Positions 344-34,163 of a stretch of DNA of 64,000 bases are shown here, piece after piece. The notes below the pieces were generated by a model. It was not told the origin of the DNA, searched no databases, and was given only the letters and a program-made list of their open reading frames with translations. Numbering within the stretch: the first letter of the stretch is position 1; each line of letters opens with the position of its first letter. Source of the DNA: an uncultured bacterium (GTDB taxonomy: Bacteria > Chlamydiota > Chlamydiia > Chlamydiales > Waddliaceae); assembly GCA_964635295.1 (NCBI GenBank), contig CAZWOB010000001.1, positions 47,743 through 111,742 on the forward strand, read 5' to 3'. The position numbers and the translations under genes are program-made.

Positions 344-822
344 AAACAAGAACATTAATTACTAAAGAGCAAAAACTAAGGGCTTGGGGTCCGGGCCAAT
401 GGGTGGATGAACCAGATGCAGCTGAGTTTGTATCTCACGGATTAAATTGCCGTGTGATCCGAAATGGGAAGATTATTAGCGATGACCTCATTGTTGGAGG
501 AGTTTGGTGTGGATATGTTGAGGTTGATGAGTCGATGAAGAGTAAATTTGCTGACTGCGAGGTGCATGGCGGGATTACTTGGGAAGGTCCTCGCCTTAAT
601 TTGTTCAATGAAGAAGAATCATTTTGTATTGGCTTTGACTGCAACCACGCTTTCGATATATCGCCCTCTAACAATGAGGAAAAAATGTTTGCGCTCATGG
701 GTGGCGAGATTTTCCCTAAAGAGTACAGGGATTTCGATTTTGCTATTTCAGAAACAAAATATCTGGCCAAACAAATTTCTGAGATTATGGAAAAAGAAAA
801 GGAGCCTTTACAGACTCCCTGA
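340..822 (+). CDS. hypothetical phage-associated protein, Cys/His/Trp-rich
   Basis: 160-aa ORF translationally coupled to 110..343. Motifs WGPGQWVDEPD, GGVWCGYVEV, HGGITWEG, CIGFDCNHAFD. The antisense ORF 435..770 is judged a shadow. Confidence 0.5.
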   Translation: MKTRTLITKEQKLRAWGPGQWVDEPDAAEFVSHGLNCRVIRNGKIISDDLIVGGVWCGYVEVDESMKSKFADCEVHGGITWEGPRLNLFNEEESFCIGFDCNHAFDISPSNNEEKMFALMGGEIFPKEYRDFDFAISETKYLAKQISEIMEKEKEPLQTP

Positions 823-861
823 AAACACTTTTAAATAAGAATCGGAAATGAGATCTTCAGC

Positions 862-1029
862 TTAACCGTCTTCCGGTGTCAGGTCAATATCTATTCCAGT
901 GTGATGCTCGATAACATCCTCCATAGCCTCTTCAAGGGGGTGATCATCCTGAAGGCCAAGCTTGTCATTGATCACCGAGCAAGCGCCGAAGCACATCCCG
1001 ACAAACAGCATTGATAACGCAAGTTTCAT
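862..1029 (-). CDS. small acidic lipoprotein (phage moron, spanin-like or exclusion-like)
   Basis: Internal ATG at 1029 is preceded by AAGGA with 7-nt spacing. N-terminus MKLALSMLFVGMCFGAC is a signal peptide plus lipobox Cys. The mature part is about 39 aa and strongly acidic. The longer 862..1095 start lacks an RBS. Confidence 0.5.
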   Translation of the reverse strand: MKLALSMLFVGMCFGACSVINDKLGLQDDHPLEEAMEDVIEHHTGIDIDLTPEDG

Positions 1030-1197
1030 AAGTACATCCTTGTATTTGTAGAACATTTCATATCCTATGTAATTATTCATCCATGAAGTAAACATCTGAA
1101 AGCCCCACTTCTCTTAAACCTTCTCTGATATAAGTTAGATCGTAGATGAACGATTCGTTGCGTCTTCTGAAGATGAAAAATAAAGGTCCGTCCAAGA

Positions 1198-1419
1198 TCA
1201 ATAGGTCCCATTGAAATAAGCTTGTTTTTCGTCATCTGACATCGATGCGGAGCTTGCGATCTTATCCCGTGCAGAATTCATTAAGGCCTGCCTAGCCTGC
1301 TCTTCCTGTTCTGCTTGTTGCTGTATGGCTTCGTTGGCTGCCCATTCATCTCTGACAGCCTGTTCCTCTTGAAGGGTTAATTCTACTTTCCTGCCATTTA
1401 CTTGCTTATATAAAACCAT
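1198..1419 (-). CDS. hypothetical small phage protein downstream of the tail fibres
   Basis: 73-aa ORF, Gln/Glu-rich helix, last gene of the minus-strand fibre cluster. Confidence 0.45.
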   Translation of the reverse strand: MVLYKQVNGRKVELTLQEEQAVRDEWAANEAIQQQAEQEEQARQALMNSARDKIASSASMSDDEKQAYFNGTY

Positions 1420-1426
1420 GATTGAC

Positions 1427-2185
1427 CTACGATGGGGTTAAACCGTATAAACGGAATGTTCCTGACTCAATGTTTCCGCTGCTCATAAAGAACTGGATAG
1501 CATCCACAGCTTCTGCCGCCAGTCTAGCCCCTGCACTTCGATTGTTTACCAATTGATCAACATAGTTCATATAAGTTGCCCTGGCCGTCATCATTGTATA
1601 TCCTGACCCTGATGGGTTAAACAAATCTAAAATAATATTTCCACTTTCATTTGTGTCGCTTCCTAACTCAGTACCAGCTAATAGTCTAATATAAGTAAAT
1701 CCTCCAGCAAAACCATTAATATTACTACTGCTATTGGCTGATTGATAGATATATCCATAGTCATAATTTGAAGCACCTGAATCAAAAGTTGATCCATTGT
1801 CGCTGGAAGTACGAATTCTAAACTCAACTTCATCAGTTTCCGGAACTAAATCTGTTATCACCCATTGGTATTGGATATAGCTCGAATCTAAATCCGTAAA
1901 TTCAATCGTAGCATCGTTTGATGCTGTAGTCGAAGAAATGAAAGTCCACGCCCCAGAACCAGCCGCATTTGTTGCCCACTTCAATCCAGTCGATTCCCCG
2001 CTGTCAGCTGTTAAGACCTGATCGTTACTTCCCACACCAATGCGTTGATAAGCCGATCCATCGTAAACTAACAAATCACCTTTCGTCGTCAGGTCAATAG
2101 GGGTAAAACTTCCGTCGGATGGATCGAAGATTTGAAGCCCTTCACCAGTGATATTCATACTGTTTATCGTCATGCTACCGTCCAA
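1427..2185 (-). CDS. tail fibre protein
   Basis: 252 aa. N-terminal motif TTKGDLLVYDGSAYQRIGVGSNDQVLTADSGESTGLKWA is typical of phage fibre N-termini. Overlaps the upstream fibre ORF by 16 nt. Confidence 0.6.
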   Translation of the reverse strand: MDGSMTINSMNITGEGLQIFDPSDGSFTPIDLTTKGDLLVYDGSAYQRIGVGSNDQVLTADSGESTGLKWATNAAGSGAWTFISSTTASNDATIEFTDLDSSYIQYQWVITDLVPETDEVEFRIRTSSDNGSTFDSGASNYDYGYIYQSANSSSNINGFAGGFTYIRLLAGTELGSDTNESGNIILDLFNPSGSGYTMMTARATYMNYVDQLVNNRSAGARLAAEAVDAIQFFMSSGNIESGTFRLYGLTPS

Positions 2186-5028: not shown

Positions 5029-5038
5029 CTACTCCCCC

Positions 5039-5617
5039 TTAAATTGACTGAACAACGTAGTAAACGCGAACAGAAACAGTGTTGTCATTGGCAGCGTTTC
5101 CGGCTATCTCGCCATCTCCGGTATTGTGCAATACCAACGCCTGGTTTTCTGCTGAAGCGGCAGCTACGATTGCATCTGATGCCGGCTCACCGTTGGTGTA
5201 GGTGTCGGCAGTGGCATCGATGAAGTTAGTGGATTCAATTGTACCGGAGACTGCTACACCAGACCCATTGGTATACTTGATAGCAAGGTTATCAGCACTT
5301 TCTGTAAAAGCGTTTGAGCCTCCGTAATTCAGTTTAAGCAATGCTCCCATGAACTTAATCGCAGATCCTGCACCTTGTGCAGCGACGAGGGTTTGAGGAG
5401 TGGCGCGCAGGGCTTTTACCTCAGCGGAAGTAAGCGTTACATCAGCGTGTTGAAGGAAACCTGCTTGACCGAGATATGTTGTTAATGACTTTGGAGACAG
5501 GTAAACATCGTCTCTTGTCTCGTCTACAGCCTCGGTTGCAGTGGCGAATCTGGCTATCCCTGCTCTCGTTTCTCTAGCCTGCTCTACCATCGCTGTTCTG
5601 TTGGGGTACTTTGGCAT
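5039..5617 (-). CDS. virion structural protein (fibre/collar-like N-terminus)
   Basis: 192 aa. Strong RBS AAGGAGGAAGTA before the ATG. FATATEAVDETRDDVYLSPKSL resembles the conserved fibre/collar N-terminal motif. Confidence 0.5.
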   Translation of the reverse strand: MPKYPNRTAMVEQARETRAGIARFATATEAVDETRDDVYLSPKSLTTYLGQAGFLQHADVTLTSAEVKALRATPQTLVAAQGAGSAIKFMGALLKLNYGGSNAFTESADNLAIKYTNGSGVAVSGTIESTNFIDATADTYTNGEPASDAIVAAASAENQALVLHNTGDGEIAGNAANDNTVSVRVYYVVQSI

Positions 5618-5685
5618 TACTTCCTCCTTGAAGTAAGAAATTCATTTAAGTTTTCTAAAACACTAAGTTTTAGTACAATAAAAAT

Positions 5686-5850
5686 ATGAACGCAATTGAT
5701 CGAAGAAAAAAACAATTAGAAGAAGAAACTGCAAAGCGTAAGGCGAAAAACGTAAAGTTTTTCTTGTTTTGCGCCTTTCTAACATTCTTTTACCTTCCTC
5801 TAGGGATTGTAGGAATGTTTTATTGTTTGCTGTTTCTTGACTACTCCTGA
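5686..5850 (+). CDS. small tail-anchored membrane peptide, antisense to the structural operon (not in the supplied ORF track, under 60 aa)
   Basis: Translated by hand: MNAIDRRKKQLEEETAKRKAKNVKFFLFCAFLTFFYLPLGIVGMFYCLLFLDYS (54 aa). TACAAT box lies 5-10 nt upstream of the ATG. The 3' end overlaps the stop of 5841..8342 by 10 nt. Confidence 0.4.
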   Translation: MNAIDRRKKQLEEETAKRKAKNVKFFLFCAFLTFFYLPLGIVGMFYCLLFLDYS

Positions 5851-17324: not shown

Positions 17325-17520
17325 GTTGATTTTCCGCCTTTGCTTCCTGTTTCATCATTTCTCTAACCTTCATGGAACCTTGACCCTGAAGCTTAGATCT
17401 GTTGTTCAACTGAGAACCTTTCATAGGCACTGGCGCCGGGCTGTTTGGCGAATTAACGCTGTACATACCGCGACCTTTACCCTGAGGAACTGCTGAACCG
17501 TAGCCTTTATTAGCTCCCAT
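17308..17520 (-). CDS. small basic Gly-rich protein
   Basis: 70 aa, disordered basic composition. Its start abuts the portal stop. Confidence 0.4.
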   Translation of the reverse strand: MGANKGYGSAVPQGKGRGMYSVNSPNSPAPVPMKGSQLNNRSKLQGQGSMKVREMMKQEAKAENQRGRGM

Positions 17521-19598
17521 TACAGACCTCCCTGTTGTTGTGGTTGTTGTGGTGACTCTTGATCGATAGCGCTAAAAACTTCGATGTTCTTCGCGCGATT
17601 TTCTTGAAACTCTGATTGCTCTTGCTGCCTTAAGAACTGAAGGAAGGAAACGATCTTCTGAATGTTGTCAGCTTTTAAGCCTTCAATTTCTGCAAGCGTC
17701 TTAGCTCTATCGAGATTTGCCTGAGCGATATTTTGTATTTGTTCAGACTCTCTTTCCCCTTCTAGACCTAAATTTGCAAGACCTCTTGTATCTCTTTCGT
17801 TAGCCGTTGATTTGTTCAGGTCAATCTGTGACTGGACAAGCTCCAGCTGTTGTTGGATCTGCTGAATCTGCAATTGCTGTTGTTGCAGATCTATCTGCTC
17901 TTGCTGTTGATTAACCTGCTCGATGCGCTCCATCAACTCTGAGTGGCCGACCATCGGCATGTTTTCAATGATCAGATCGACAGGGATCTTTTCTGGACCG
18001 AAAAGCTCTACTGCCCTTAGAAGCTCAAAATAGAAAGCGTCTCTTTGAGACTGAGACTTCACACCCTGCTTGATCACAGCATCGTAACGCTCAAAAGACT
18101 CGTCATTGAACTGCTGTGTCGGCTCTTCATTGATAATACGAGCGACTTTGCCAGGTCCCCAGTTTAGTTGTACCGTGTACATTACCTTTTTAGTGAGATA
18201 GCGTTGCGAGCGCTCGAAATTATCGAAAATCGCACGATTCGCTCGTAAACCGTTAGCAGCCCTTACCTCTGCAAGTCTTCCTGAAACCTGGGTATTACCA
18301 CCTTCATCGTCACCGAGCATCGACTCGTTAACGCCTGAAATTCCGTTGAATAGCGTGTTAATCGTCTGAGCGTACTCAAGCCAGCCTGGAGGCACCTGAC
18401 CCATCTGGATAGGCTTAAAGTCACGGTCAAGGTCTGCCTCGTCACGAGCCGGAATATTTCCGACACCAACACGATTCATTGCTTTCTCATCAGCGACAGC
18501 ACCAACTTTGTAGAGCATCCCGGTATTGAGGCTGGTATCCATGATGTCTTGTGCTCTTAGAAGACGCCTGTTAAAGCTCCTCTGAGCAGGGATAAGAGGT
18601 TGGACAAAGCCTTGTATCTTTAATCCAAAGTCATCAAGCTGAGGCTCAAAATAACCGGCCACAAGGGTGAGTGGGTAATCATCAAGACCAGTTGGATCTT
18701 CACCGGAATAGACAGCACGGCCGCCAAGTAGAACATTCAGCTCAACATACTGCTTGCTACGATTCATGATCTCGGCATTAATACCGCCTTCTCTTGCAAT
18801 GGCAACTAGCCTTTCATGCTCTTCCGTCTCGGATGGACTACCGTTTCTAAGCAGGATGTCTCCGGTAGACATGTCGACGATCTCTTGTACCTGCCTTGAT
18901 GTACGTCTGTAGTAGCTATCGTAGGTGATCAAATCATCTGAGTCGAAACGGTTCTTATTTGGCCTGTATTGCTGGAACTTGTTGTCGAATGTAGCCGTCG
19001 GAGTCTGATCGATCACTTTAGGATCGACAAAAGGCAAAAGAGCCTTAGCGTCTTCACGTGTAAGGAAGTCCCTTAGAAGCACTTCGGATGCGTCAGACAA
19101 ATCCAGACGGGTAAAGTTAGGGTCGATAATGAAAGAGTTGTACGAGCGCTTATAAAACTTGATATCCCCAAAGACAGGATCTTCTGAGTAATCGATCCAA
19201 AGACCGACAAGAGAAAGGCCTGTTTTCAAAGCATCGTCAAAGCCTTGCAATAGGAACTGGTCACCATCTCCCTTGTCGAATACGTACTTAACAACCGTGT
19301 TGAGCTGATCGGCAGTCTTCTCGTCAGAACCCTCCATCGGAGCGATCACTGTAGATTTTATGTTGTCTCGAGCGTAACCAGAGAAGAAGTTTACGGTTGA
19401 GCGAATGAGGTTGTATTCTGAAGGATCGCGACCTTCATCCAATAGACGTGAAATCTCATTGGACGTCCATGTACGGCCTGTATAGGCCTGCAAGCTTTTA
19501 AGGGCATTGGAAGTATAGTTTACCCAATACCTTTCTGAACGCTGCCAAAAATCATTGTAGTCTTGTTCGATCGAGGCGAAATCTGCCATCCGTGGCAA
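17520..19598 (-). CDS. portal protein
   Basis: 692 aa. First large gene after the terminase, upstream of scaffold and capsid. C-terminal Gln-rich coiled coil (QQQEQIDLQQQQLQIQQIQQQLELVQSQ), as in some podovirus portals. Confidence 0.7.
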   Translation of the reverse strand: MPRMADFASIEQDYNDFWQRSERYWVNYTSNALKSLQAYTGRTWTSNEISRLLDEGRDPSEYNLIRSTVNFFSGYARDNIKSTVIAPMEGSDEKTADQLNTVVKYVFDKGDGDQFLLQGFDDALKTGLSLVGLWIDYSEDPVFGDIKFYKRSYNSFIIDPNFTRLDLSDASEVLLRDFLTREDAKALLPFVDPKVIDQTPTATFDNKFQQYRPNKNRFDSDDLITYDSYYRRTSRQVQEIVDMSTGDILLRNGSPSETEEHERLVAIAREGGINAEIMNRSKQYVELNVLLGGRAVYSGEDPTGLDDYPLTLVAGYFEPQLDDFGLKIQGFVQPLIPAQRSFNRRLLRAQDIMDTSLNTGMLYKVGAVADEKAMNRVGVGNIPARDEADLDRDFKPIQMGQVPPGWLEYAQTINTLFNGISGVNESMLGDDEGGNTQVSGRLAEVRAANGLRANRAIFDNFERSQRYLTKKVMYTVQLNWGPGKVARIINEEPTQQFNDESFERYDAVIKQGVKSQSQRDAFYFELLRAVELFGPEKIPVDLIIENMPMVGHSELMERIEQVNQQQEQIDLQQQQLQIQQIQQQLELVQSQIDLNKSTANERDTRGLANLGLEGERESEQIQNIAQANLDRAKTLAEIEGLKADNIQKIVSFLQFLRQQEQSEFQENRAKNIEVFSAIDQESPQQPQQQGGL

Positions 19599-19735
19599 TC
19601 CGTTCCTTCCTTGGAGTTAGTTAATAACTTTCCCCCGTTAGGAAAAGGACGGCGTCGCCACTGTAACGGCAGTGTGAGGGTGATCAGCCCGACGACGCAC
19701 GCTTGTCAGCGTGCTAAATTTTTAGTGTAGATATA

Positions 19736-20011
19736 TTAACTAGATTTTTCAATAGTTATTTCGATAAAAGATTTCATCATTTTATCAAGAGTATCAAGGA
19801 TGTCGTCACTCGGTTTAACAACAAATAAATCAGAGTGTTTATCATTCCAAAAAGCCGGGTATTCTTTCAAATCCCTTCCCATAGCCTCTTTACCAAAAGC
19901 CCATTCATGAAACGCCTCTACGAGATCGCTCGATCCAAGAGCAATAGCGCAATAGTTTGAGACGCATAATATCCTTTGGCTTTTCCTTGCCCCTGCGATA
20001 TCAAGCTTCAT
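19736..20011 (-). CDS. hypothetical protein
   Basis: 91-aa ORF with a 4-nt overlap with 20008..20550. Confidence 0.4.
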   Translation of the reverse strand: MKLDIAGARKSQRILCVSNYCAIALGSSDLVEAFHEWAFGKEAMGRDLKEYPAFWNDKHSDLFVVKPSDDILDTLDKMMKSFIEITIEKSS

Positions 20012-20550
20012 TTCATCATTGCCATTGTTTCTTTTTTAACCCATTCAGGCGGCTCAGGATGTGGCGACCAATCCGTTACACCTATAAGAGCTACATCGGT
20101 TTTTCCAAGAAACCATCTTCCATCTTCATGGCGACCCTTATCATAATTCTCACCGTTTGATAAAGGTTTTCCAAAAACCCATACCTCATCGCTATGAAGA
20201 GGAGGGCTTGACTCAGCGTCTATCCAATTAAAACCCTGAACCAGAAACACCCTGGATGCTTCTACTTTTCTATGATAGTCTTTCAAATTATAGAAAGAGG
20301 GATAACCAGATTCATCATCACCATAAAAAACAACATCCCAAAAACCACTCCAGTCAAACTCTTCCAGACTCTGAAGTAAAACAGGAACAGAACCCCATTT
20401 CTTTCTAAATTTAATGAATGTCATGGGAACAGAAATCTCTTTTTCCATGCTATAGTCTGATAACCTCGATGAAACCTCCTGAACCCTTTTCTCGACACCA
20501 CAACCGTCATAATCAAAAATCATTAAAAAACCATGCAAGTAATCACTCAT
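20008..20550 (-). CDS. hypothetical protein with C-terminal DUF551-like domain
   Basis: 180 aa. WIDAESSPPLHSDEVWVFGK...GVTDWSPHPEPPEW matches the DUF551 pattern (W-I-x-x-x-D-x-P ... W-x-P-x-P-x-P-P). Confidence 0.5.
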   Translation of the reverse strand: MSDYLHGFLMIFDYDGCGVEKRVQEVSSRLSDYSMEKEISVPMTFIKFRKKWGSVPVLLQSLEEFDWSGFWDVVFYGDDESGYPSFYNLKDYHRKVEASRVFLVQGFNWIDAESSPPLHSDEVWVFGKPLSNGENYDKGRHEDGRWFLGKTDVALIGVTDWSPHPEPPEWVKKETMAMMK

Positions 20551-21347
20551 ATCCTATTCCTTCGATACCGATCCATTCTGTCTAAATGCTCTTTGAGAGC
20601 TTTATCAGACGTTCCACCAGATATTAACTGCTCAGCCCTTCCAAGGTATCTAAAAGCAGATGCCCCATGAGATGCCCAGTCATGCAACTCTCTTTCCACG
20701 TAGCACTGATTCTTCTCTGACCACTCTTTGCGGTAGTTCTCCAAAGCCTTGATCCCCTGAGCGCATTTATCCTTATCAAACCAGCATCGATCCAGCATCG
20801 ATCGTGCGTAGTTGGTGGCCGGGATGATGTCATTTTCCCTTTCAAGCTTGATCAATTTGATTCCAAGATCCCTGGCAAAGTCTACCAGAGACCGGCCAGT
20901 CTGAAACGACTTTATTCCTGCATCGTGTGGGACATAGTGTTTCCCATAGATGTAGTTTCTTTGCCTAAGGACGGTGATATAATGGGATATGTCCTCAAAA
21001 TTGTTTTCGTAGTAGTCGATTAACCTGATCTCTTTTCCAACCAATTGAAAGAACCAGATGGCCGTAGGGTCACGTCTGCCAAGATCCCAAGCCGTATGCA
21101 CCTCAGATAAACGCTCATACGGCACAGAGCATATACACCCCTCACTGTGAGCTTTAGAGATGCCTTTTCCGTACCATAGGCCGTCATTTGCGACCTCCCA
21201 GCACTCATCAAGTGTGGAGGGGTATTGCGTCTTCATACCATCGCCGAGCGTTGAGGCCTTTTTGATATACCAGTTCTTTTGACCTTGCGAAAGCCTAATG
21301 TCGTGATCTTTGCATAGCTTGTCGAAATAGGCTTGGTAGTCTTTCAT
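20547..21347 (-). CDS. terL: terminase large subunit, C-terminal nuclease half only
   Basis: 266 aa. LSQGQKNWYIKK, QYPSTLDECW, HTAWDLGRRDPTAIWFFQ (first acidic nuclease motif), VPHDAG, HDWASHGASAFRYL. These are characteristic C-terminal TerL blocks. No ATPase motifs are present. Confidence 0.8.
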   Translation of the reverse strand: MKDYQAYFDKLCKDHDIRLSQGQKNWYIKKASTLGDGMKTQYPSTLDECWEVANDGLWYGKGISKAHSEGCICSVPYERLSEVHTAWDLGRRDPTAIWFFQLVGKEIRLIDYYENNFEDISHYITVLRQRNYIYGKHYVPHDAGIKSFQTGRSLVDFARDLGIKLIKLERENDIIPATNYARSMLDRCWFDKDKCAQGIKALENYRKEWSEKNQCYVERELHDWASHGASAFRYLGRAEQLISGGTSDKALKEHLDRMDRYRRNRI

Positions 21348-21529
21348 TTAATCTGAAGCAAAGCCCTTACTTTAATGTCTTCCGGCTCAAACCTGGCATT
21401 TGACAAAGCCTCATTGATGCAATGCTTAACCACTGGGTCATCAGCTAAGAACTTGTATTCATCGTACATCAGAAACTTTTGCTTGTAGGTCTGTTCCACG
21501 ACTTTAATCGTGATCGTTAGCTCTGTCAT
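21344..21529 (-). CDS. hypothetical small protein (insert block)
   Basis: 61-aa ORF with a 4-nt overlap with the terL-C start. Confidence 0.4.
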   Translation of the reverse strand: MTELTITIKVVEQTYKQKFLMYDEYKFLADDPVVKHCINEALSNARFEPEDIKVRALLQIK

Positions 21530-21586
21530 AAACGTCCTTGTTTATAGTAAGTTATACATGTTTATACCTGGAACCAGATATAACCC

Positions 21587-21772
21587 TTAGTTTACTGGAA
21601 GTGAAAAATGTACCAAACCATTGCACTGATCACACTCCACCCATACATCAGTATAGTATTCAGGATCATTGTCTTCCTGCGCGTAGACCTGAAATTTATT
21701 TCCACACTTGCAGTCCTCACTATATAAGCACCGACTTTTAAGTATGTGTTCACGTGATAGCTCACTTCCCAT
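21587..21772 (-). CDS. small Cys-rich zinc-ribbon-like protein (insert block)
   Basis: 61 aa with CxC and CxxC pairs (CKCGNK ... CDQCNG). GAGGAG RBS lies 9 nt upstream. Preferred over the overlapping frame 21592..21789. Confidence 0.45.
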   Translation of the reverse strand: MGSELSREHILKSRCLYSEDCKCGNKFQVYAQEDNDPEYYTDVWVECDQCNGLVHFSLPVN

Positions 21773-21785
21773 TCAATAAAACTCC

Positions 21786-22166
21786 TCAAAGATAATCATC
21801 AGGTTTTCTTTTAAATTTCATGGCATATGTGCTTTTTGTTTGAAGTGGATCACAATACATAGGGGGGCGATGTATAAATTGAACATCCTCCCCTAAGTAT
21901 AATTTTTGGAGTGCCCAAGTCAAGAGATCCAAAGTATTTTCATAATCTGTTTTTAGCAGATATTCTGCATACTTTTTAAAAAATCTATTATTCATCTTTT
22001 CGATGGCGTTTTCATCAAAATCGCCTTCTTCTAAAATGTAAGCGAAGCCTTCATCAAGGGGATGGATCTCTCCGTTTTTTATAAGCATTCTTAACTCACC
22101 AAGATCACTTTCCAAAGCCAAGCCACAAAACCGACCCCAGCAACGAAAAGGAGCCAGCAACAGCAC
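21786..22166 (-). CDS. hypothetical protein (insert block)
   Basis: 126-aa ORF. Confidence 0.4.
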   Translation of the reverse strand: MLLLAPFRCWGRFCGLALESDLGELRMLIKNGEIHPLDEGFAYILEEGDFDENAIEKMNNRFFKKYAEYLLKTDYENTLDLLTWALQKLYLGEDVQFIHRPPMYCDPLQTKSTYAMKFKRKPDDYL

Positions 22167-22192
22167 ATTAGAAACACCTCAGACCAGTGCAT

Positions 22193-22435
22193 TTAGCTTA
22201 CAACCCCACATGTAGGGCATTTCAGCTTTGGAAGCGGTATCCAGTGTGTTACACAATCGTCTATTGCATTTTTCCACAAGCCATTAAATTGACGACAATC
22301 TTCAAAATAAACAACCTCATCACCGTCCTCTACCCTCACCAATACTTTCACATTAAAAGGAGGTGGATCTTCCCTTACAGAACTCCATTTCAGAGTGCTA
22401 ATTCTCATCTTGATACCTCGGCGCTTTTTCGCCAC
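22193..22435 (-). CDS. DUF551-like protein with C-terminal CxxC (insert block)
   Basis: 80 aa. WSSVREDPPPFNVKVLVRVEDG...VTHWIPLPKLKCPTCG. The start may be the internal Met at 22408. Confidence 0.5.
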   Translation of the reverse strand: MAKKRRGIKMRISTLKWSSVREDPPPFNVKVLVRVEDGDEVVYFEDCRQFNGLWKNAIDDCVTHWIPLPKLKCPTCGVVS

Positions 22436-22754
22436 AAAAAGGGCAATATTTAACCATCAGATTCCAGAGGTTTGTTCCAGACGATGAAACATAAAAGTAT
22501 CCCTCTTTTTCTTTACAAATGTAGGGTTTAAGGTACCCAACACCACAAAAATGCAACTTAACTGGAGGCTCAGGCAAAGGCATCCATCCCAAAATACTTG
22601 ACTCATTCCACCTATCAAACTTGCCACTCAACCAGAAATTGTTTTCCTTGTCCCAAGATATTAAATTATATCCCTTAAAGTTTAATCCATCTATATAGAC
22701 GAGAATTTCAGATCCGTCTTTGGGAGCTGTCTCTATTGGTTGCCACTCAGTCAT
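22398..22754 (-). CDS. DUF551-like protein with C-terminal zinc ribbon (insert block)
   Basis: 118 aa. WQPIETAPKDGSEILVY...ILGWMPLPEPP, then CGVG...CPFCG. Confidence 0.5.
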   Translation of the reverse strand: MTEWQPIETAPKDGSEILVYIDGLNFKGYNLISWDKENNFWLSGKFDRWNESSILGWMPLPEPPVKLHFCGVGYLKPYICKEKEGYFYVSSSGTNLWNLMVKYCPFCGEKAPRYQDEN

Positions 22755-22799
22755 CTGAATCCCTCGTACACCATTTTCTCTTTAAATTCTAAGAACTCC

Positions 22800-22985
22800 T
22801 CAGGTGTCATCGTCATCTCCATAAACTAACTTTCTTGTGAATTTAAACTCGAAAAGAACAATGGATATCGAACAGCCTAAGCACCCATATGCACCCCAGC
22901 GTTTTAGCACCTCAACACCTTCAAACTGCCCTATCAAATACAAAGACAGAATTAAGAAAAATACACCGATCGGCTTTGAAATCAT
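22800..22985 (-). CDS. small membrane protein (insert block)
   Basis: 61 aa with two hydrophobic segments (IGVFFLILSLYLIGQF, GAYGCLGCSISIVLF). Confidence 0.4.
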   Translation of the reverse strand: MISKPIGVFFLILSLYLIGQFEGVEVLKRWGAYGCLGCSISIVLFEFKFTRKLVYGDDDDT

Positions 22986-22988
22986 TTC

Positions 22989-23216
22989 TCAAATCTCCCA
23001 CACATGAAAACAAAAAGGATGCACATCTACGTACTCCTCATCGGGTGGGAGTATGATTGCTGCATACTTTACTTGAGGTAGGTACTTATAACGAGCCTCC
23101 TTTATCTCAGACCACGTTGGTGGTCTTGATCCGTGCGATATAGACAAGTGCATCCGGCCGTTGTCCTTCGGTATTTCTTGGTAGCATTTGCCGTCTACTT
23201 CGATAATGTTTTCCAT
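22989..23216 (-). CDS. hypothetical phage protein (insert block)
   Basis: 75 aa. The HLSISHGSRPPTWSEIKEARYKY pattern is seen in prophage orphan families. Confidence 0.45.
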   Translation of the reverse strand: MENIIEVDGKCYQEIPKDNGRMHLSISHGSRPPTWSEIKEARYKYLPQVKYAAIILPPDEEYVDVHPFCFHVWEI

Positions 23217-23245
23217 TTAGTTCCTTTAAATTTCGTAACCTTTCG

Positions 23246-23323
23246 TAAGCCGAGGAGGGATTCGAACCTTTGTACCATTAAACCACAAGGTAAAACTCGG
23301 TGTTTTGCTAAGCTGGTACACCG
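23246..23323 (-). other. tRNA-like remnant / structured RNA (T-arm and acceptor 3' strand, no anticodon arm)
   Basis: Minus strand reads CCGAG-TT-TACC-TTGTGGTTTAAT-GGTA-CAAAGGTTCGAATCCCTC-CTCGG-CTTA. It contains the canonical GGTTCGAATCC T-loop box. An upstream hairpin CGGTGT-N14-ACACCG is also present. A full cloverleaf cannot be drawn. Confidence 0.35.
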
Positions 23324-23329
23324 ATTCAA

Positions 23330-23575
23330 TTATTTTTCCCCCAACAAACAAAGCATCTTGATCGCATACATTTGCGATTGCTCAAGATGAGTCAATGCCT
23401 CTTCAAATACACGCATACAGCTTCCCAGATCTTCATCCACTAACAAAGGGAAAGCCTCTGAAACGTAATTTTCCAATTCAATATATTTTGAGCGCATGTC
23501 AGACATTTTCTGAATTATTTCTTCATCAAAATCTGATATGTAATCTAGTCTGAATGAGCTTTTAGTCATTTTCAA
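23330..23575 (-). CDS. hypothetical protein (insert block)
   Basis: 81-aa acidic helical ORF. Confidence 0.4.
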   Translation of the reverse strand: MKMTKSSFRLDYISDFDEEIIQKMSDMRSKYIELENYVSEAFPLLVDEDLGSCMRVFEEALTHLEQSQMYAIKMLCLLGEK

Positions 23576-23808
23576 TCCTCATTTAAATAATCCCTTTCAA
23601 CCTCTTGAATGATCCACTGAATTTCTGATTCGCATTTGTCGAGTGTGCGTGTTAATGACTCAAGACGTAAAAGCACTTCATAAGGTACCTTGTTTATCTC
23701 ATACGCCTCTCTTACTAGGCGGTAAAGACTGCTGGCTATCATAGAAACGTCTGTTTCTCTCCCTTCAATAACATCCTTTGATTGACCTCTTTCTTCCAGC
23801 CAAGTCAT
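23572..23808 (-). CDS. hypothetical protein (insert block)
   Basis: 78-aa ORF with 4-nt overlaps on both sides. Confidence 0.4.
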   Translation of the reverse strand: MTWLEERGQSKDVIEGRETDVSMIASSLYRLVREAYEINKVPYEVLLRLESLTRTLDKCESEIQWIIQEVERDYLNED

Positions 23809-24098
23809 GCCAAATACTCCTTCATCCGGTTAAGCGGCTTCGGCGGTTTTGGATTCGGCATCCAGTAATCAATCTTTCCTCCGATGCAATCAACAAAATT
23901 TCCGTACCTATCAAAATAGACAGAAGTATATCGCACCCTTTTACCGTCAAACGTCATAACCATTTCACCATAATCAGGTAGATCGTCCTCTACACTGATC
24001 CATCCAGGCGTATACTCGACGTATTTTATCTCGCGATTGAAAGCATAATAGACATTGATAGCAGCTAACAGTGCCAATAAAAAAATAAGAGCCATCAT
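23805..24098 (-). CDS. membrane-anchored DUF551-like protein (insert block)
   Basis: 97 aa. N-terminal TM segment MMALIFLLALLAAINVYYAF, then WISVEDDLPDYGEMVMTF...IDYWMPNPKPP. Confidence 0.5.
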   Translation of the reverse strand: MMALIFLLALLAAINVYYAFNREIKYVEYTPGWISVEDDLPDYGEMVMTFDGKRVRYTSVYFDRYGNFVDCIGGKIDYWMPNPKPPKPLNRMKEYLA

Positions 24099-24099
24099 T

Positions 24100-24468
24100 T
24101 CACCTTTCTTTTGTTTCTTTTTTTACTTTCTCAATCCTGTCGCTAAAGACTCTGTGCAAAAATATTCTTATGAACTCTTCAAGAACATTTTCATGAAAAA
24201 CCATATGATCGGAACAAAACATATCTGATTGATGATCTCCCACCTTTAAACGAACAACTGTTTGACATTCTTCTGGAGATTGCTTGTAAAGAAGTGAAGC
24301 CTGCCTTGGAACTGTCCAGCTGTTTCTTGAAAAACTATCTTCAAAATCAAACGTTTCGATCGGGTTGTTTACTTCAAATTGATTTCTGAGCTTTTCATTT
24401 TCATATAGAAGTCGTCTAATTTCAGACTCTAAATAATCGGTGTATCGTTTTGTGTATTCACTGATCAC
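24100..24468 (-). CDS. hypothetical protein (insert block)
   Basis: 122-aa ORF. Confidence 0.4.
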   Translation of the reverse strand: MISEYTKRYTDYLESEIRRLLYENEKLRNQFEVNNPIETFDFEDSFSRNSWTVPRQASLLYKQSPEECQTVVRLKVGDHQSDMFCSDHMVFHENVLEEFIRIFLHRVFSDRIEKVKKETKER

Positions 24469-24809
24469 TTTTTGTCCCTTCTCTCTTGTACAGGGTGTCT
24501 GCCGACATACTTACCGGCAGGGTGTCCCTGGCTTTCTGGGTAGTAGGCTTGCAAATACTCGTTTTGACGGATGGCTAGCAGAACATTGCAAAGCGTCTCT
24601 TCAACGATCTCAAACTGCTTTTGTGACAGCCTAAGCGCCTCATCGTACTTCTTTAGCGACTTCTCAACTTTAAGAAGACATCCATTAAGCTTACTAAGCT
24701 TTTGCTCCTGTACCTGCCCGTACTGCGTTAGAAACCGCTGATTCTCTCTTAACATCTCTTTGATAAGATTGGTGTGGAACGCTCTTTCATCTTTTGCTTC
24801 GTTGCCCAT
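24465..24809 (-). CDS. hypothetical coiled-coil protein (insert block)
   Basis: 114-aa ORF that starts 8 nt after the terL-N stop, with a GGAGAA RBS. Confidence 0.4.
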   Translation of the reverse strand: MGNEAKDERAFHTNLIKEMLRENQRFLTQYGQVQEQKLSKLNGCLLKVEKSLKKYDEALRLSQKQFEIVEETLCNVLLAIRQNEYLQAYYPESQGHPAGKYVGRHPVQERRDKK

Positions 24810-24817
24810 TCATTCTC

Positions 24818-25567
24818 CTAATTTAATGTGTATGTGGATTCCTTCCACCAAGGGAAAAAGAACAGCTTGTAATCCATCTCACCTGGCTCCTCTCCCTTAA
24901 CAGCCTTTTCCTGCGCCTGCTTGCAAATGTCGTAGAAATACCCGCCTCTCCCCTCACTCGTTGACTCGATAGTCACCTGCTGACCTATCGCAACCGTCTC
25001 AAGCGCCCCTTCAATGATCTCTTGCGCTTTTGCTGGGTATTTGGCGCATATCTTTCCAAATTCGCTGATATGAAGCCTCTGGAACGTTCCACCGCGTGGA
25101 GCGGTATCTACCACGTAGCTTGACCCATTTGCCCATCTAAGCATTCGCGTTGAATCCTTGGAAGCTGGGTTTAGCTTGGTTACCCAATCAGGCATCCGCT
25201 CCCAGGCAAACTTGACCTTGTTCTCAAAGATAAGTTCAGCGTTTTCTCTTCTGTCAGCAATAAACGTCGTGTCGATCGGAGTTTCATTGAAGATGCAGTC
25301 ATCGATGTAGTTAATGGCGTAGAATGTAGTCACGCCAAGCTGACGGCTTTTGGGGATGATCTTCAGCGGGTGAGGGTCTTTCAAGAGCTCAATTTGCGCC
25401 CAGTTGGGTTCAAAAAGCACAGGCTTTCCGTCTTTACCCTTTATCCAATAAAGCCCAGACTTCTTTGATAATCGCCACTCTTTATCTAAAAGCTTTGGAT
25501 TATCCTTGGCGTATATCTCAACAACTTTTCTAAAATCTGAAGTCATGAGATGGAACATAAACGACAA
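24818..25567 (-). CDS. terL: terminase large subunit, N-terminal ATPase half only
   Basis: 249 aa. NWAQIELL...IIPKSRQLGVTTF (Walker-A-like), RLHISEFGKI (Walker-B-like), TIESTSEG (coupling motif). Ends in FFFPWWKESTYTLN at the usual ATPase-nuclease linker. Confidence 0.8.
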   Translation of the reverse strand: MSFMFHLMTSDFRKVVEIYAKDNPKLLDKEWRLSKKSGLYWIKGKDGKPVLFEPNWAQIELLKDPHPLKIIPKSRQLGVTTFYAINYIDDCIFNETPIDTTFIADRRENAELIFENKVKFAWERMPDWVTKLNPASKDSTRMLRWANGSSYVVDTAPRGGTFQRLHISEFGKICAKYPAKAQEIIEGALETVAIGQQVTIESTSEGRGGYFYDICKQAQEKAVKGEEPGEMDYKLFFFPWWKESTYTLN

Positions 25568-25613
25568 TTAATAATTTATGAAAGAAAAAGAATTATTTAA
25601 CATGCTGATTATA

Positions 25614-25643
25614 TTGACTTTATGTCATTCATTGACATATAAT
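25614..25643 (+). promoter_or_regulatory. sigma70-type consensus promoter for the plus-strand moron cassette
   Basis: TTGACT (25614-25619), 18-nt spacer, TATAAT (25638-25643), about 40 nt upstream of the ATG at 25682. Confidence 0.6.
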
Positions 25644-25681
25644 ATAATCAAGATAAACAATAAAACAGAGACTTTAGCTCA

Positions 25682-25942
25682 ATGCCTGAAATCAGCCGAT
25701 TCCTGGGAATTATTATCAGAATGTACTATGTAGACCACCCTCCTAAGCATTTTCACGCACACTACAAAGAGTTTGTTGGTTTAATCTCTATTGAGTCTTG
25801 CGAGATGATTGAGGGAAATCTTCCAAAAAGAGCGCTTAAGTTGGTGCTTGAGTGGGCTTCTATTCACAAAGAAGAATTGTTGAGCAATTGGGAGCTGGCT
25901 GAAAAGCGAAAGCCTCTGAATAAAATTGAACCCTTGGAGTAG
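25682..25942 (+). CDS. DUF4160 family protein
   Basis: 86 aa. MPEISRFLGIIIRMYYVDHPPKHFHAHYKEF is the hallmark N-terminus of this family. Confidence 0.75.
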   Translation: MPEISRFLGIIIRMYYVDHPPKHFHAHYKEFVGLISIESCEMIEGNLPKRALKLVLEWASIHKEELLSNWELAEKRKPLNKIEPLE

Positions 25943-25944
25943 TG

Positions 25945-26199
25945 ATGCATACTGTGAGCAGGTTTTTTTATCTTAAAGATTACAAGGTGCTTTTGGAGTT
26001 TGATAATGCAGAATTTAAGATTGTAGATCTTGAGGAGATCGTGAACCAGGGTGGTGAAGTTTTTTCGTCCCTTAAAGATTTAGAATATTTTAAAACATTA
26101 TCTCTTGATGATCCTGATTACCCTAGCAGTATCTGCTGGCCTAATGGGGCTGATATCTGCCCCGACATTCTCTATGAAATGGGGAGGGATATTAGATGA
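25945..26199 (+). CDS. DUF2442 family protein
   Basis: 84 aa from the ATG at 25945 (the track uses the GTG at 25942). YKVLLEFDNAEFKIVDL ... ICWPNGADICPDILY is the family pattern. This is the usual partner of DUF4160. Confidence 0.65.
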   Translation: MHTVSRFFYLKDYKVLLEFDNAEFKIVDLEEIVNQGGEVFSSLKDLEYFKTLSLDDPDYPSSICWPNGADICPDILYEMGRDIR

Positions 26200-26438
26200 G
26201 TGCTTTTTTTAGTGCTGACGAATTTCATGAAGAAGTGTTTGGTGGTAGACCAAAGGGATCTGTTTGTCTTGCTGGCGCAAGGAAAAGGGAAGATCTTACC
26301 CAGGCACAGCTTGGCGAGATGATCGGCGTATCACAATACAATATTTCAAAGATGGAGAGGGGTCATAGACCTATTGGAAAAGACATCGCTAAGCGTTTGG
26401 CTAAGGTATTTAAGTGTGATTATAGGGTGTTTCTTTGA
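26196..26438 (+). CDS. XRE-family helix-turn-helix protein
   Basis: 80 aa. LTQAQLGEMIGVSQYNISKMERGHRPIGKDIAKRLAKVF. ATGA overlap with the previous gene. Confidence 0.7.
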   Translation: MSAFFSADEFHEEVFGGRPKGSVCLAGARKREDLTQAQLGEMIGVSQYNISKMERGHRPIGKDIAKRLAKVFKCDYRVFL

Positions 26439-26442
26439 AGGG

Positions 26443-26868
26443 CTAGTTTTCCTTTCCCATGTCTCTTTGAGCCTGCTGACCTGCTAAGAAAGCTTTCATG
26501 AGGTCGCCCTCTTTCTCAGCCCTTTTCATCTCTTTAAGCATAGCTCGATGCTCATCGTCGTATGTAGCTAGAGACGCTTTTACAATGCCGGCATCTACAT
26601 CGCCTCTTAGTCCCATTTTCTCTCTTCTTACTCCGACATTACACCTGGCAATTTTAAGAGCTTCGGAAAAGGTGGGGGATTTGTCGGCTAAATAGGTGAG
26701 CCATTGTGGCCCGTACCCCCTCGATGCAGGAAACTCTCTTAAGATAATTGCGTCGTCTGTTTTAGACCACTCAATGAGCTGTTCTGCTTCTTTTTCAATT
26801 AAATCAGCCGTCCATTTTTCAGGCCTTCCAATGCCATGGCCACCATGTTTACTTTTCTTGTCTGCCAC
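26443..26868 (-). CDS. terS: terminase small subunit
   Basis: 141 aa with a GTG start preceded by AAGGA. GRPEKWTADLIEKEAEQLIEW ... FSEALKIARCNVGVRRE resembles the small-terminase pattern. Lies upstream of terL. Confidence 0.6.
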   Translation of the reverse strand: MADKKSKHGGHGIGRPEKWTADLIEKEAEQLIEWSKTDDAIILREFPASRGYGPQWLTYLADKSPTFSEALKIARCNVGVRREKMGLRGDVDAGIVKASLATYDDEHRAMLKEMKRAEKEGDLMKAFLAGQQAQRDMGKEN

Positions 26869-31242: not shown

Positions 31243-32376
31243 ATGATCCACAAAATTGCCCTCTCTCTACTGATCCTATGCTCTTTTACCTCCTGCTCCA
31301 ACAAATTGAATGAATTTCCGGTCCAAGGTGAGTTCGAAGGAATTAAAACCGTTTTACAAAACCAGAACTGCGTAAACGTCGTTATGATCCATGGGATGGG
31401 GGGCTTTTCCGAAGGCGATCCTCAAACGCTGAAATGCGCCGTTGTCAACTGCCTGCGCTTGCGCAAAACAGCACCCGACTGCGTTAGAGAAGTGATTGGA
31501 GAGCTCTCAGGTCAACCCTATTACTATGGAAATTTAAAACGAGAAGAATACAGAGATCCCTGCTCCTCAAAAACTGTGCGTTTTTACACCATCGATTGGC
31601 ATCCGACCGTTGACACACAGAAACAGCGATTGATCGAAATGGACAAACCGATGATCACATGCCGGGAAAAATCGATCCAGACTCTTAAAGAATCTGTGAT
31701 CAACAATACAACCGCCGATACTTTCCTGTACTTTTCTTCATTCCGATCTGAAATGGAGCATCCGATCATCCAATCGATCCGCTGGATCGTTGAAGACTCC
31801 TGCAATGAATCAGAAACGGAAAATCTTGTCGTCGGCTACAGCATGGGCGGCAATCTTTTGATCAATTCTCTTATCTCCATGCTATACAATAAGACTGATG
31901 AATCAAATACCAAGATCGCAAAAACATTTATCGACGATACAGCTGCCGTATATTATCTCTCAAATGGCTTCCCTCTTGCGGAACTGGTCGAAGACCATCC
32001 TGAAAAGCAATATGACTATGACGATGACCAGCACTGCGAGCTCGCCCCCGATACAAGAAATTTACAGGAAGACGTCTGGCACTGGAATAAATCTCCATTA
32101 GGCTTGTTCGTCAACGAAAAAAGGAAGAACTCCCCCAATTTTCAAATCGTTTCTTTCAACGATCCCAATGACCCCTTCAGCTACAATGCCTCAAAATACC
32201 CTGTCCCCAACGGAAGCAACACCCTTAACGCATTTTTAAATGAAAACGTGCGCAATGTTCAAAGAGCAACATTGGGCAATGTTGACCCTGCGGAAGCACA
32301 TACCGGTTATGGGAAAAACCCAAAGGTGATCGGACTTATCATTAATGGACTGCGTTCTCGAAACGTTTGTTATTAA
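31243..32376 (+). CDS. lipoprotein alpha/beta-hydrolase (lipase/esterase-like)
   Basis: 377 aa. Signal peptide plus lipobox (LLILCSFTSC). VVMIHGMGG (oxyanion HG), VVGYSMGG (GxSxG nucleophile elbow), late NDPNDP and AHTGY as candidate Asp and His. Confidence 0.6.
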   Translation: MIHKIALSLLILCSFTSCSNKLNEFPVQGEFEGIKTVLQNQNCVNVVMIHGMGGFSEGDPQTLKCAVVNCLRLRKTAPDCVREVIGELSGQPYYYGNLKREEYRDPCSSKTVRFYTIDWHPTVDTQKQRLIEMDKPMITCREKSIQTLKESVINNTTADTFLYFSSFRSEMEHPIIQSIRWIVEDSCNESETENLVVGYSMGGNLLINSLISMLYNKTDESNTKIAKTFIDDTAAVYYLSNGFPLAELVEDHPEKQYDYDDDQHCELAPDTRNLQEDVWHWNKSPLGLFVNEKRKNSPNFQIVSFNDPNDPFSYNASKYPVPNGSNTLNAFLNENVRNVQRATLGNVDPAEAHTGYGKNPKVIGLIINGLRSRNVCY

Positions 32377-32497
32377 TACAGGTCTTTGCGCCAATTCCAC
32401 ATTTATCGAATATAGGGTGGAAATCCCCCTATTTATACGGTATTTTAATATTTATTTACCTTATAAAATATTAATAAATAAAATACATGTAAATAAA

Positions 32498-33322
32498 ATG
32501 AATATAAAAAACAGTTGCTTAAGTTATTTTAACGGTTTAAATAATTTATTTTCTAACACAAAAACTTATAAAGATCGTTTAATCTGTAGTTTAAAGATAA
32601 TTTCTTTAGCCACGATCATTATTCCATTATTTGTAGGAATTTCTTATTCGATTTGTATAGGGATAGAGCGCATAAAAGGACGAGTGAAAGTTATCCAGCC
32701 TGATAACAATGGTAATGAACACGCCGAACAAGCAAGAAGAGAAACGTCGGATAACAACAATCCTGTGAGACCAACAGCACAGAGCGTATCCAGCGGTAAC
32801 ACCACTAATACCGTCGAACGTGTAAGAAGACAAACATTTCAGAATACCACCAATATTGGATATGGGAATCTTAGCAAGGCAGAACTAGAGAGGAAATTTT
32901 TCCAGGAGGTTAGATCTGGAAATATCAATGAAGTCGGGAAATTACTACGGCACAACAAAGACCTTGTTCAATGTCGCGATCACAATGGGATGAACGCCCT
33001 TTTTTATGCTGAGACCTCTGAAATGCTTGAATTTCTATTAAAGAGAAATGTTAACCCAAACCAAAAAGCGGATTATGGTTGTAATGGTAAGACCCCTCTT
33101 ATCCATTTTCGCACAAATACAGCATTTATTAAACTCCTATTGAGTCATGGAGCTGATAGAGACATAGCAGATAATAATGGATGGACTGCATTAAGATGGG
33201 CGAGGCGCGATGCAGCTTGGGGAGGTGATCGTTCTATTCGAGATTATGGCCAAAATAATGATGGAGAAGAGTGTCACGAAAATATCAGGCTTCTCAAGCA
33301 CTTTTATCCAGAGACGGTGTAG
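32498..33322 (+). CDS. membrane-anchored ankyrin-repeat protein
   Basis: Start moved to the ATG at 32498 (MNIKNS), because the track start at 32345 overlaps the upstream gene and crosses an AT-rich spacer. TM segment LKIISLATIIIPLFVGISYSICIGI. ANK repeats NGMNALFYA...LLKRNVNPN, GKTPLIH...LLLSHGADRD, NGWTALRWA. Confidence 0.65.
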   Translation: MNIKNSCLSYFNGLNNLFSNTKTYKDRLICSLKIISLATIIIPLFVGISYSICIGIERIKGRVKVIQPDNNGNEHAEQARRETSDNNNPVRPTAQSVSSGNTTNTVERVRRQTFQNTTNIGYGNLSKAELERKFFQEVRSGNINEVGKLLRHNKDLVQCRDHNGMNALFYAETSEMLEFLLKRNVNPNQKADYGCNGKTPLIHFRTNTAFIKLLLSHGADRDIADNNGWTALRWARRDAAWGGDRSIRDYGQNNDGEECHENIRLLKHFYPETV

Positions 33323-33398
33323 TACTCGTCCAGAAACTGAAGGTTGCGGTTAAGAGCGTCATTTGTTAGGGTCGTTGCTAAAAATACACTCCTGATCA

Positions 33399-34163
33399 AT
33401 GATCTCCATCAAAAATATCCGCAAAACATATAATAACGGCCAAACCTATATTGTCGATAATGTCAACCTGGAGATCCCTGAAGGAAAAACTGTCGTCCTT
33501 CTAGGATCCTCCGGATGCGGAAAGACAACTCTTCTCAAAATGATCAATCGCTTGATTGAACCGACGTCCGGCGATATCGTCATCGACAACAAAAACATCC
33601 TCGAATATGACCCGATTACGCTGAAACGTACGATTGGCTACGCATTTCAAGGTGTCGGCCTGTTCCCCCACCTCACCGTCAGCGAAAATGTTACCATTGT
33701 TTTAAAACTGATGGGAATGGATTCAAAACAAATTGAGGAAAGGGTCCTTGAGCTTTTGACAACTGTCAACCTGAATCCCCAAGTCTTTTCCAATCGCTAT
33801 CCCGATGAGCTCTCCGGAGGACAACAGCAACGCGTTGGCGTCGCCAGATCACTCGCTACCTATCCCAAATATCTCCTGATGGATGAACCGTTCGGGGCCC
33901 TGGACGCGATTAACCGGGATGCGATGCAAGAGGAAATGTCAGGGATCAGGGATAAGTTCCATACAACAATCCTGTTTGTCACCCACGACATTTTCGAAGC
34001 TGTCAGATTAGGAGACCTCATTGCTGTCATGAATCAGGGAAAGGTCGAACAGATGGGAACTGCCTCAGAACTGATCAATCATCCCAAAACACCGTTCGTC
34101 GAAAACCTCTTTCTAAAACCTCTGGAACAGCTCAAACTCTACAAAGAGGAGCTGCAAACTTGA
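33399..34163 (+). CDS. ABC transporter ATP-binding protein (osmoprotectant/choline-betaine type)
   Basis: 254 aa. Walker A GSSGCGKTT, signature LSGGQQQRV, Walker B LLMDEPFGALD. Confidence 0.85.
   Translation: MISIKNIRKTYNNGQTYIVDNVNLEIPEGKTVVLLGSSGCGKTTLLKMINRLIEPTSGDIVIDNKNILEYDPITLKRTIGYAFQGVGLFPHLTVSENVTIVLKLMGMDSKQIEERVLELLTTVNLNPQVFSNRYPDELSGGQQQRVGVARSLATYPKYLLMDEPFGALDAINRDAMQEEMSGIRDKFHTTILFVTHDIFEAVRLGDLIAVMNQGKVEQMGTASELINHPKTPFVENLFLKPLEQLKLYKEELQT

Follow-up and report, generated by a model that had tools for sequence, protein, structure and literature searches.

Whether a phage packaging motor can still be built from a large terminase gene (terL) that is no longer continuous is the question raised by a prophage in a 64,000 nt stretch of DNA (the window) from an uncultured bacterium of the Waddliaceae (Chlamydiota; NCBI GenBank assembly GCA_964635295.1, contig CAZWOB010000001.1, positions 47,743 to 111,742). 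The gene lies on the minus strand as two open reading frames (ORFs), here called terL-N and terL-C, and sequence comparisons indicate that it is a gene in pieces, in which two separately translated polypeptides would assemble non-covalently into a working terminase (TerL); we put the probability of this at about 0.7. With less assurance, though leaning in its favor, we take the arrangement to be a stable two-chain packaging motor, in which the link between the ATPase core and the lid-plus-nuclease part would be dispensable and the gap would have been co-opted as a hypervariable slot for late accessory genes.

terL-N (24818..25567) encodes the N-terminal segment and the RecA-like ATPase core, and is 249 aa long when read from a TTG codon; the alternative start used by gene callers, an ATG at 25558, gives 246 aa (P0001) and is likely to be the true one. 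The product carries a Walker A motif (KSRQLGVTT), a Walker B motif with the catalytic glutamate (LHISEF) and a C-motif (IESTSEG), and ends in FFFPWWKESTYTLN before the stop codon. terL-C (20547..21347) encodes 266 aa, comprising the helical lid of the ATPase domain (aa 1 to about 68) and, from about aa 80, an RNase-H-like nuclease with the motifs WDLGRRD, PHD and HDWASHG. The approximate masses are 28 kDa (TerL-N) and 31 kDa (TerL-C). Among the features that define a large terminase, the additional strand catalytic glutamate (ASCE) ATPase with its three motifs is found in TerL-N and the C-terminal RNase-H-fold nuclease with conserved acidic residues in TerL-C, while in place of a single polypeptide with both activities there are two ORFs 3,470 nt apart. 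A preliminary description of the window, made from its letters alone, had reported a split terL with these coordinates and motifs, and all of these were recovered, on the minus strand.

Searches of PHROGs matched TerL-N to phrog_26724 (2e-53; a 192-position family) and to the TerL family phrog_2 (1.6e-17), and TerL-C to phrog_2472 (1.9e-51). Neither piece had a match in Pfam, and sequence searches of the PDB with each half singly gave nothing significant, so that profile and fold comparisons were needed. By tblastn against 50,697 phage records, the pieces mapped one after the other, head to tail, within single annotated terL genes. One example is Erwinia phage vB_EhrS_49, where aa 26-249 of TerL-N matched 543..1199 and aa 7-240 of TerL-C matched 1233..1958. 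Scans that covered 80 loci each from IMG/VR, GTDB genomes and metagenomes together yielded 229 loci with an uninterrupted terL, in which both matches were contiguous and in one frame, confirming that the two pieces are colinear with intact TerL proteins. The intact proteins are 5-6 codons longer at the junction than the joined N and C pieces. Two simpler explanations had been anticipated at the outset, and both fail: neither ORF by itself is a full-length terminase, and the same layout is present in two independent assemblies, from ENA (78-kb contig) and JGI (70 kb), with two short Logan contigs also showing terL-N followed by the first insert ORFs, which rules out an assembly artefact.

The break had been described as lying at the linker between the ATPase and nuclease domains. 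The split itself holds, but comparison with intact TerL places the break in the loop between core and lid, that is, at the core/lid boundary within the ATPase domain and about 75 residues upstream of the ATPase-nuclease boundary. A profile of intact homologues aligned to residues 127-305 of T4 gp17 with a probability of 94.5% (hhalign), its IESTAEG motif lying opposite gp17 residues ~283-289. By extrapolation, the strand FFFPWW would correspond to gp17 residues of about 313-318 and the break to about 315-330, which we take to be the border of N-subdomains I and II, the ATPase-nuclease hinge presumably lying near residue 360. The AlphaFold2 (AF2) model of TerL-C (predicted local distance difference test score, pLDDT, of 88.2) has four helices within residues 4-68 and its first nuclease strand at residue 83. 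Foldseek matched the TerL-C model to the terminase nuclease domains of D6E, G20c, SPP1, P22 and T4, from E 2e-09, and the structures of isolated nuclease domains (G20c, SPP1 and P22; 177-194 residues) cover only about 170-200 of its 266 columns.

When TerL-N and TerL-C were modeled as a fusion (AF2, pLDDT 87.9), the result matched full-length T4 gp17 (E 2.7e-16, 507 columns). The sole internal segment of low confidence was residues 247-251, exactly the junction, and values below 50 were confined to this segment and the N-terminus. The break is located in a non-conserved surface loop, disordered in the fused model, just after the highly conserved FFFPWW strand, and in structural terms the model suggests that it is tolerable. 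The TerL proteins of Stx phages align unbroken with residues 25-325 of the fusion, and those of one Vibrio phage group with residues 25-299; both cross the junction and diverge only afterwards, so that the evolutionary ATPase module reaches 50-76 residues into TerL-C. In these phage records (H74-H100, Stx-converting phages and the Vibrio group), the ATPase core and lid are alike and the C-terminal part is unrelated, which would put a domain-swap boundary directly after the lid.

Between the terL-N stop (24818) and the terL-C ATG (21347) lie 3,470 nt with twelve minus-strand ORFs, as first described, and the GC content of the insert is 0.36-0.43 versus 0.47-0.50 for the terL halves. Overlaps of 4 nt had been noted at both junctions; one was found at the 3' junction, where the terL-C ATG overlaps the preceding ORF as ATGA (21347-21344), whereas at the 5' junction the stop and start codons are 8 nt apart (TAG-GAGAATGA-ATG). 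The gene junctions are tight and no terminator-like sites were found on the minus strand of the insert; terL-N, the insert genes and terL-C probably share one transcript, and terL-C is probably translated by coupling at the ATGA overlap. The tRNA-like remnant that had also been reported was not recovered: ARAGORN detected no tRNA anywhere in the window, and no relevant Rfam match appeared at E<=1.

Related phages with an intact terL and with the same split, both of which the preliminary description had proposed to look for, were found; the split is common to relatives with 72-80% identity and to many distant lineages. A word-indexed protein search with TerL-N returned mostly proteins of 229-250 aa, and 28 aligned N-only proteins (40-80% identity) all end no more than ~24 residues past the motif FFFPWW..Y.L. 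With TerL-C, many proteins of 257-295 aa were retrieved whose starting methionine lies within ~10 residues, just before the YF..L helix. The gap varies widely among loci. In L001/L002 (80% identity in TerL-N) it is 531 nt with one 147-aa ORF; in L093 (74%) it is 2.1 kb (2141 nt) with eight small ORFs, and the portal gene directly follows terL-C; in L094 (73%) it opens with a different 157-aa ORF and the contig ends before terL-C. Among loci with 46-48% identity (L083, L084-86, L182 and L202), the gap is a single HNH_3 endonuclease gene (543-768 nt), while L087 (46%) has a gap of 139 nt with a called 64-aa ORF and L088 (46%) one of 55 nt. The window clade (window, L001, L093 and, where the contig allows, L094) is thus split throughout, with differing cargo. 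All eight split loci with both halves have a separate ATG for the C half within ~10 residues of the break.

The codons of the intact genes in L003 and L007 (...GYR-E-[G/S][S/G]-E-[E/S]-I-[I/V]-V-S-K-E-T...) can be compared with those of their split sisters, which end in ...YR[I/L](K)-stop and resume as M...[I/V/T]-[V/I]-S-K-E-[T/I], and this narrows the insertion point to ~5 codons of the loop in which the window's terL is also broken. A neighbor-joining tree of the N halves shows split and intact genes interleaved (P0045 paired with L006, P0032 with L009, P0049 with L027 and P0008 with L017), and the intact L003 and L007 are nested in the HNH-split clade, indicating repeated gain and/or precise loss of the split. 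Split genes made up 3 of 76 informative metagenome loci; of the best 150 representatives of 50%-identity clusters about six were clearly N-only (4%), or up to 11 (7%) if five longer proteins of 274-298 aa are included. These two estimates are free of the bias of the word index and are mutually consistent. No insert was seen at the break site in 80 IMG/VR loci or in 80 GTDB loci, a few of the latter being truncated, frameshifted or ended by the contig. The window's cluster is the only one with more than 51% identity to the query, and all of its members seen are split. No relative closer than ~50% identity was found in the scans of GTDB genomes and JGI metagenomes, the window clade being found in the protein collection only.

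Three side observations concern these relatives. L087 (8750-8889) and L088 (8750-8806) share the same N piece (P0045) and their gaps differ by 83 nt; together with the 64-aa ORF present in only one of them, this suggests that the gap is still being remodeled. The split relative on the P0006 contig (ENA ERZ1426815; 52% identity) has, after its N piece, ORFs of 225, 123 and 79 aa and then a 600-aa protein with a weak Intein_splicing match, which seems to be a C piece with an intein of its own. A second split site at Walker A, considered on account of 420-436-aa matches covering 60-68% of TerL-N, was dropped: some of these begin within the ATPase core and seem to be ORF calls that were cut short, and others are shorter TerL proteins with a divergent N-terminal part.

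The split loci that carry a free-standing HNH_3 gene inside the terL gap (one each in L083, L085, L182 and L202) bear directly on how the two halves are expressed. In L182 the order is N (3833-4588), HNH (4585-5088) and C (5063-5899), and in L202 it is N (..6890), HNH (6913-7623) and C (7620-...); stop and start codons overlap or are no more than 22 nt apart on both sides of the HNH gene, leaving no non-coding room for a ribozyme. This is relevant to the alternative that the 3.47 kb is spliced out of the RNA as an unrecognised or very degenerate intron of group I or II, or by some other route. Introns are well known to target terL, and there are phages in which splicing has been demonstrated (PMC10055350, PMC11878797, PMC12880540). 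In the present case, however, no Rfam intron family was detected in 19500-26500 at E<=1, and Rfam 15 gave nothing intron-like in the HNH inserts at E<=10 or in five relatives at gathering thresholds. The insert is almost wholly coding, with several of its 12 ORFs having homologues elsewhere; it contains neither a ribozyme core nor a reverse-transcriptase or maturase ORF as expected of a group II intron; terL-C has its own start at the junction, as do its split relatives; and the inserts of close relatives (531, 2141 and 3470 nt) have no ends in common. Splicing is accordingly very improbable, and the earlier opinion that the insert is too gene-dense for a simple intron or intein is upheld by the Rfam and Pfam results and by the flush ends of the fragments.

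The skin element in sigK is a programmed DNA rearrangement. If the terL insert were similarly excised from DNA before packaging, or if the protein were rejoined by a split intein as in 'fractured genes' (PMC2677866), a known repair route for interrupted genes would apply in either case. Against excision, a search for flanking repeats and terminal inverted repeats gave short chance-level matches only, the insert borders lack any direct or inverted repeat that reaches 14 nt, and no integrase or recombinase is encoded by the twelve ORFs. Against protein splicing, no Hint or intein domain was found with Pfam, Hint blocks are absent from the fragment ends, and these ends are flush with intact TerL, without intein-sized extras. 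Both routes are largely refuted and scarcely credible here. A T4 gene-60-style ribosomal bypass was considered for the 55-nt gap of L088 and rejected, since there is a GGA take-off codon before the stop and the only downstream GGA is out of frame; in the window, bypass across 3.5 kb would be impossible. With splicing, inteins, DNA excision and bypass all unsupported, separate translation and non-covalent assembly remain.

That the two chains may form an active enzyme is suggested indirectly by purifying selection and by the confident fused model with its disordered junction loop. In pairwise comparisons among the window, L001, L093 and L094, pN was 0.15-0.20 and pS, which is saturated, 0.79-0.90 for both halves. 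The key residues of Walker A, Walker B and the C-motif are invariant in 28 split homologues, and D88, D93, D142 and H222 of TerL-C are invariant in 40 sequences. These data are also pertinent to the opposing possibility, raised from the start, that the split inactivated terL and that the prophage is packaging-defective, whether decaying, domesticated or dependent on a helper terminase. The element is integrated beside host genes, split alleles are a minority (~4-7% of clusters), and the break lies inside the ATPase domain. Nevertheless, both halves are open with all catalytic motifs kept, constraint is strong among relatives with saturated synonymous sites, the same break occurs in many lineages on phage-sized contigs of 33-39 kb, the remaining morphogenetic module looks complete (portal, capsid and tail), and there is no second terL in the window. 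An inactive terL is therefore unlikely, long-term constraint and an ordinary portal, capsid and tail module both weighing it down, while function as two polypeptides, the other possibility voiced initially, is favored by the shared cut, the retained catalytic residues, the constraint and the separate ATG of the C half.

Several points weigh against a working gene in pieces, or against the account of its origin given below. Saturation of synonymous sites allows no numerical dN/dS, and the lineages compared are all split. The Shine-Dalgarno sequence before terL-C is weak in the window, L001 and L093; only L083 and L085 have a strong one. Divergent ribozymes may escape covariance models, whose silence therefore does not by itself decide against splicing, and causes other than terL could have left the prophage domesticated or defective. 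In models of the T4 and P74-26 proteins the covalent link between core and lid is considered important for force transmission by TerL, and separating the two would not be obviously neutral. Finally, neither an endonuclease gene nor a recognisable remnant of one was found in the window clade, and its origin by endonuclease insertion is argued from other lineages; an independent insertion event may instead lie behind the split in this clade.

As to origin, the break would have arisen in the non-conserved surface loop after the FFFPWW strand, most likely beginning as a homing-endonuclease insertion that TerL tolerated, since other lineages of the same TerL family carry an HNH gene in exactly this loop. 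The preliminary description had not included this recurrent HNH insertion, which the relatives reveal. The lineage of the window would then have been left without the endonuclease gene, and the gap, lying in a late operon, would have turned into a slot that collects small accessory genes, of which there are one in L001, eight in L093 and twelve in the window. Some gap genes belong to the same families as genes found between terL and portal in relatives. In the final step, the twelve genes and terL-C would be co-transcribed with terL-N, and terL-C translated through ATGA coupling.

Friedrich et al. in 2007 reportedly described genes in pieces created by a free-standing homing endonuclease, and the split gp39/gp60 topoisomerase of T4 is a further example. 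The window resembles such cases in that homologues are unbroken, the fragments are flush, and the downstream fragment has its own start (the ATG in the ATGA overlap); an endonuclease gene in the gap is absent from the window and present in L083, L085, L182 and L202. The closest parallel is nrdA of Aeromonas phage Aeh1, which is split into nrdA-a and nrdA-b by mobE with retention of function (Crona et al. 2010, PMC3045599). In both systems the gene of an essential phage enzyme is cut where homologues are continuous, the fragments are translated separately without RNA or protein splicing (as sequence features suggest for terL), an endonuclease gene occupies the gap (an HNH gene in the relatives of the window) and assembly is non-covalent (presumably so for terL). 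They differ in the target gene, in the gap content, which is an endonuclease gene in Aeh1 and 1-12 unrelated accessory genes in the window clade, and in the insertion-derived tails that are essential for assembly of the Aeh1 fragments and almost lacking in those of the window.

Introns and inteins of terL offer more distant comparisons. Group I introns in terL are known from ICP1 (PMC10055350), Bastillevirinae (PMC11878797) and Jug phages (PMC12880540), and, as in the window, they leave at least two annotated ORFs, target conserved motifs and are often associated with homing endonuclease genes. In those genes, however, a ribozyme can be recognised and the ORF is made whole by splicing, whereas in the window no ribozyme was detected, and there is a separate start for the C piece and a 12-gene block between the two pieces. 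TerL inteins, such as that of cyanophage Mic1 (PMC7156551), and fractured genes, in which an endonuclease gene sits between the parts of a split intein (Dassa et al. 2009, PMC2677866), are similar in that an essential phage gene has a selfish element within it and its halves may have an endonuclease gene between them, but the window fragments have no intein sequence at either end. The insert is also like the moron or accessory islands of lambdoid and P22-like phages (DUF551-type), with small, low-GC, variable ORFs whose homologues change position; those islands lie between conserved late genes, whereas that of the window lies inside what is elsewhere one coding sequence. Homing endonuclease genes are reported to cluster at terminase genes, and in the literature searched on split terminases there was no report of a two-polypeptide TerL, an absence that is not proof. 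Overall, the window appears to fit genes in pieces, and what would be new is a packaging motor cut in its ATPase domain, with the endonuclease gone and a multi-gene island in the gap.

In current models of the TerL motor, force is transmitted as the lid (N-subdomain II) moves with respect to the ATPase core. If the two-chain motor is real, a lineage with separate core and lid proteins provides a natural test of the need for chain continuity, and the break marks a permissive split site for engineering. It would also mean that a fission made by an endonuclease can outlive it and leave an essential gene as a landing pad where accessory genes settle, which would give compact phage genomes a way to gain intergenic space. 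Annotation pipelines built around a single terL ORF would miscall such phages as terminase-less or defective; both phrog_26724 and phrog_2472 are labelled 'unknown function' yet are terL fragments. phrog_2472 also matches TerL-N residues 202-248, and its members start ~50 aa upstream of the window break, which may reflect either ORF calls that are too short or, in some sequenced phages, another break site close to the C-motif.

The twelve insert ORFs, all on the minus strand and no longer than 126 aa, gave no match to a homing endonuclease, reverse transcriptase or recombinase in Pfam, PHROGs or family searches. ORF1 (24465..24809; 114 aa, function unknown) starts 8 nt past the terL-N stop, which is overlapped by the AGGAG preceding it; it is 53% identical to the single insert ORF of L001 and is the only insert gene common to both. 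It is followed by ORF2 (24100-24468), ORF3 (23805-24098; DUF551), ORF4 (23572-23808), ORF5 (23330-23575; 81 aa), ORF6 (22989-23216; DUF7694), ORF7 (22800-22985), ORF8 (22398-22754; phrog_924, DUF551-like), ORF9 (22193-22435; DUF551-like), ORF10 (21786-22166), ORF11 (21587-21772; Zn-ribbon-like) and ORF12 (21344-21529). A homologue of ORF8 occurs within the insert of L093, and one of ORF9 downstream of terL-C in L001. A role of the cargo in defense or anti-defense was considered and set aside, as PADLOC found no defense-model match among these genes and the only signal was a Pfam match below the cutoff. This was a weak match of ORF5 to the Acb2/Tad1 hairpin domain (PF24729, E 0.009), which makes it a possible candidate for an anti-defense sponge-like protein.

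Downstream of terL-C, the usual position of accessory genes, occupied in relatives by a variable island of small ORFs, lies between terL-C and the portal gene. In the window it holds two minus-strand ORFs, 20008-20550 (DUF551-like) and 19736-20011, so that the terL gap seems to behave as a second accessory-gene slot. Four DUF551/phrog_924-like paralogues occur within 4 kb, three in the gap (ORF3, ORF8 and ORF9) and the fourth after terL-C (20008-20550). The P22-type portal gene (17520..19598, minus strand; PF16510, 3.3e-65) is immediately downstream in the same operon. The prophage also carries major head, tail-fibre and replication genes, and the window has no other terL-like ORF. Upstream of terL-N, a three-gene cassette (25682-26438; DUF4160, DUF2442 and HTH_3/HTH_31) is placed on the plus strand within the packaging module, and looks like a small regulatory or toxin-antitoxin unit; L093 likewise has a DUF4160/DUF2442 pair directly upstream of its terL-N. 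The cassette separates terL-N from a minus-strand ORF (26443-26868; 141 aa) that has no Pfam or PHROG match and is a small-terminase candidate by position only.

The L001-type relative with 80% identity comes from a metagenome-assembled genome (MAG) named 'Pseudomonadota bacterium' (GCA_039714795.1), and the nearest intact TerL relatives in GTDB include MAGs of Rickettsiales, Parachlamydiaceae and Chlamydiae. Genes for an ankyrin-repeat protein and for an ABC transporter of the OpuAC type lie in the host flank (31243-35671 and beyond in the window; 1-4316 in L089/L090), and the host is possibly a bacterium that lives inside cells or in association with amoebae.

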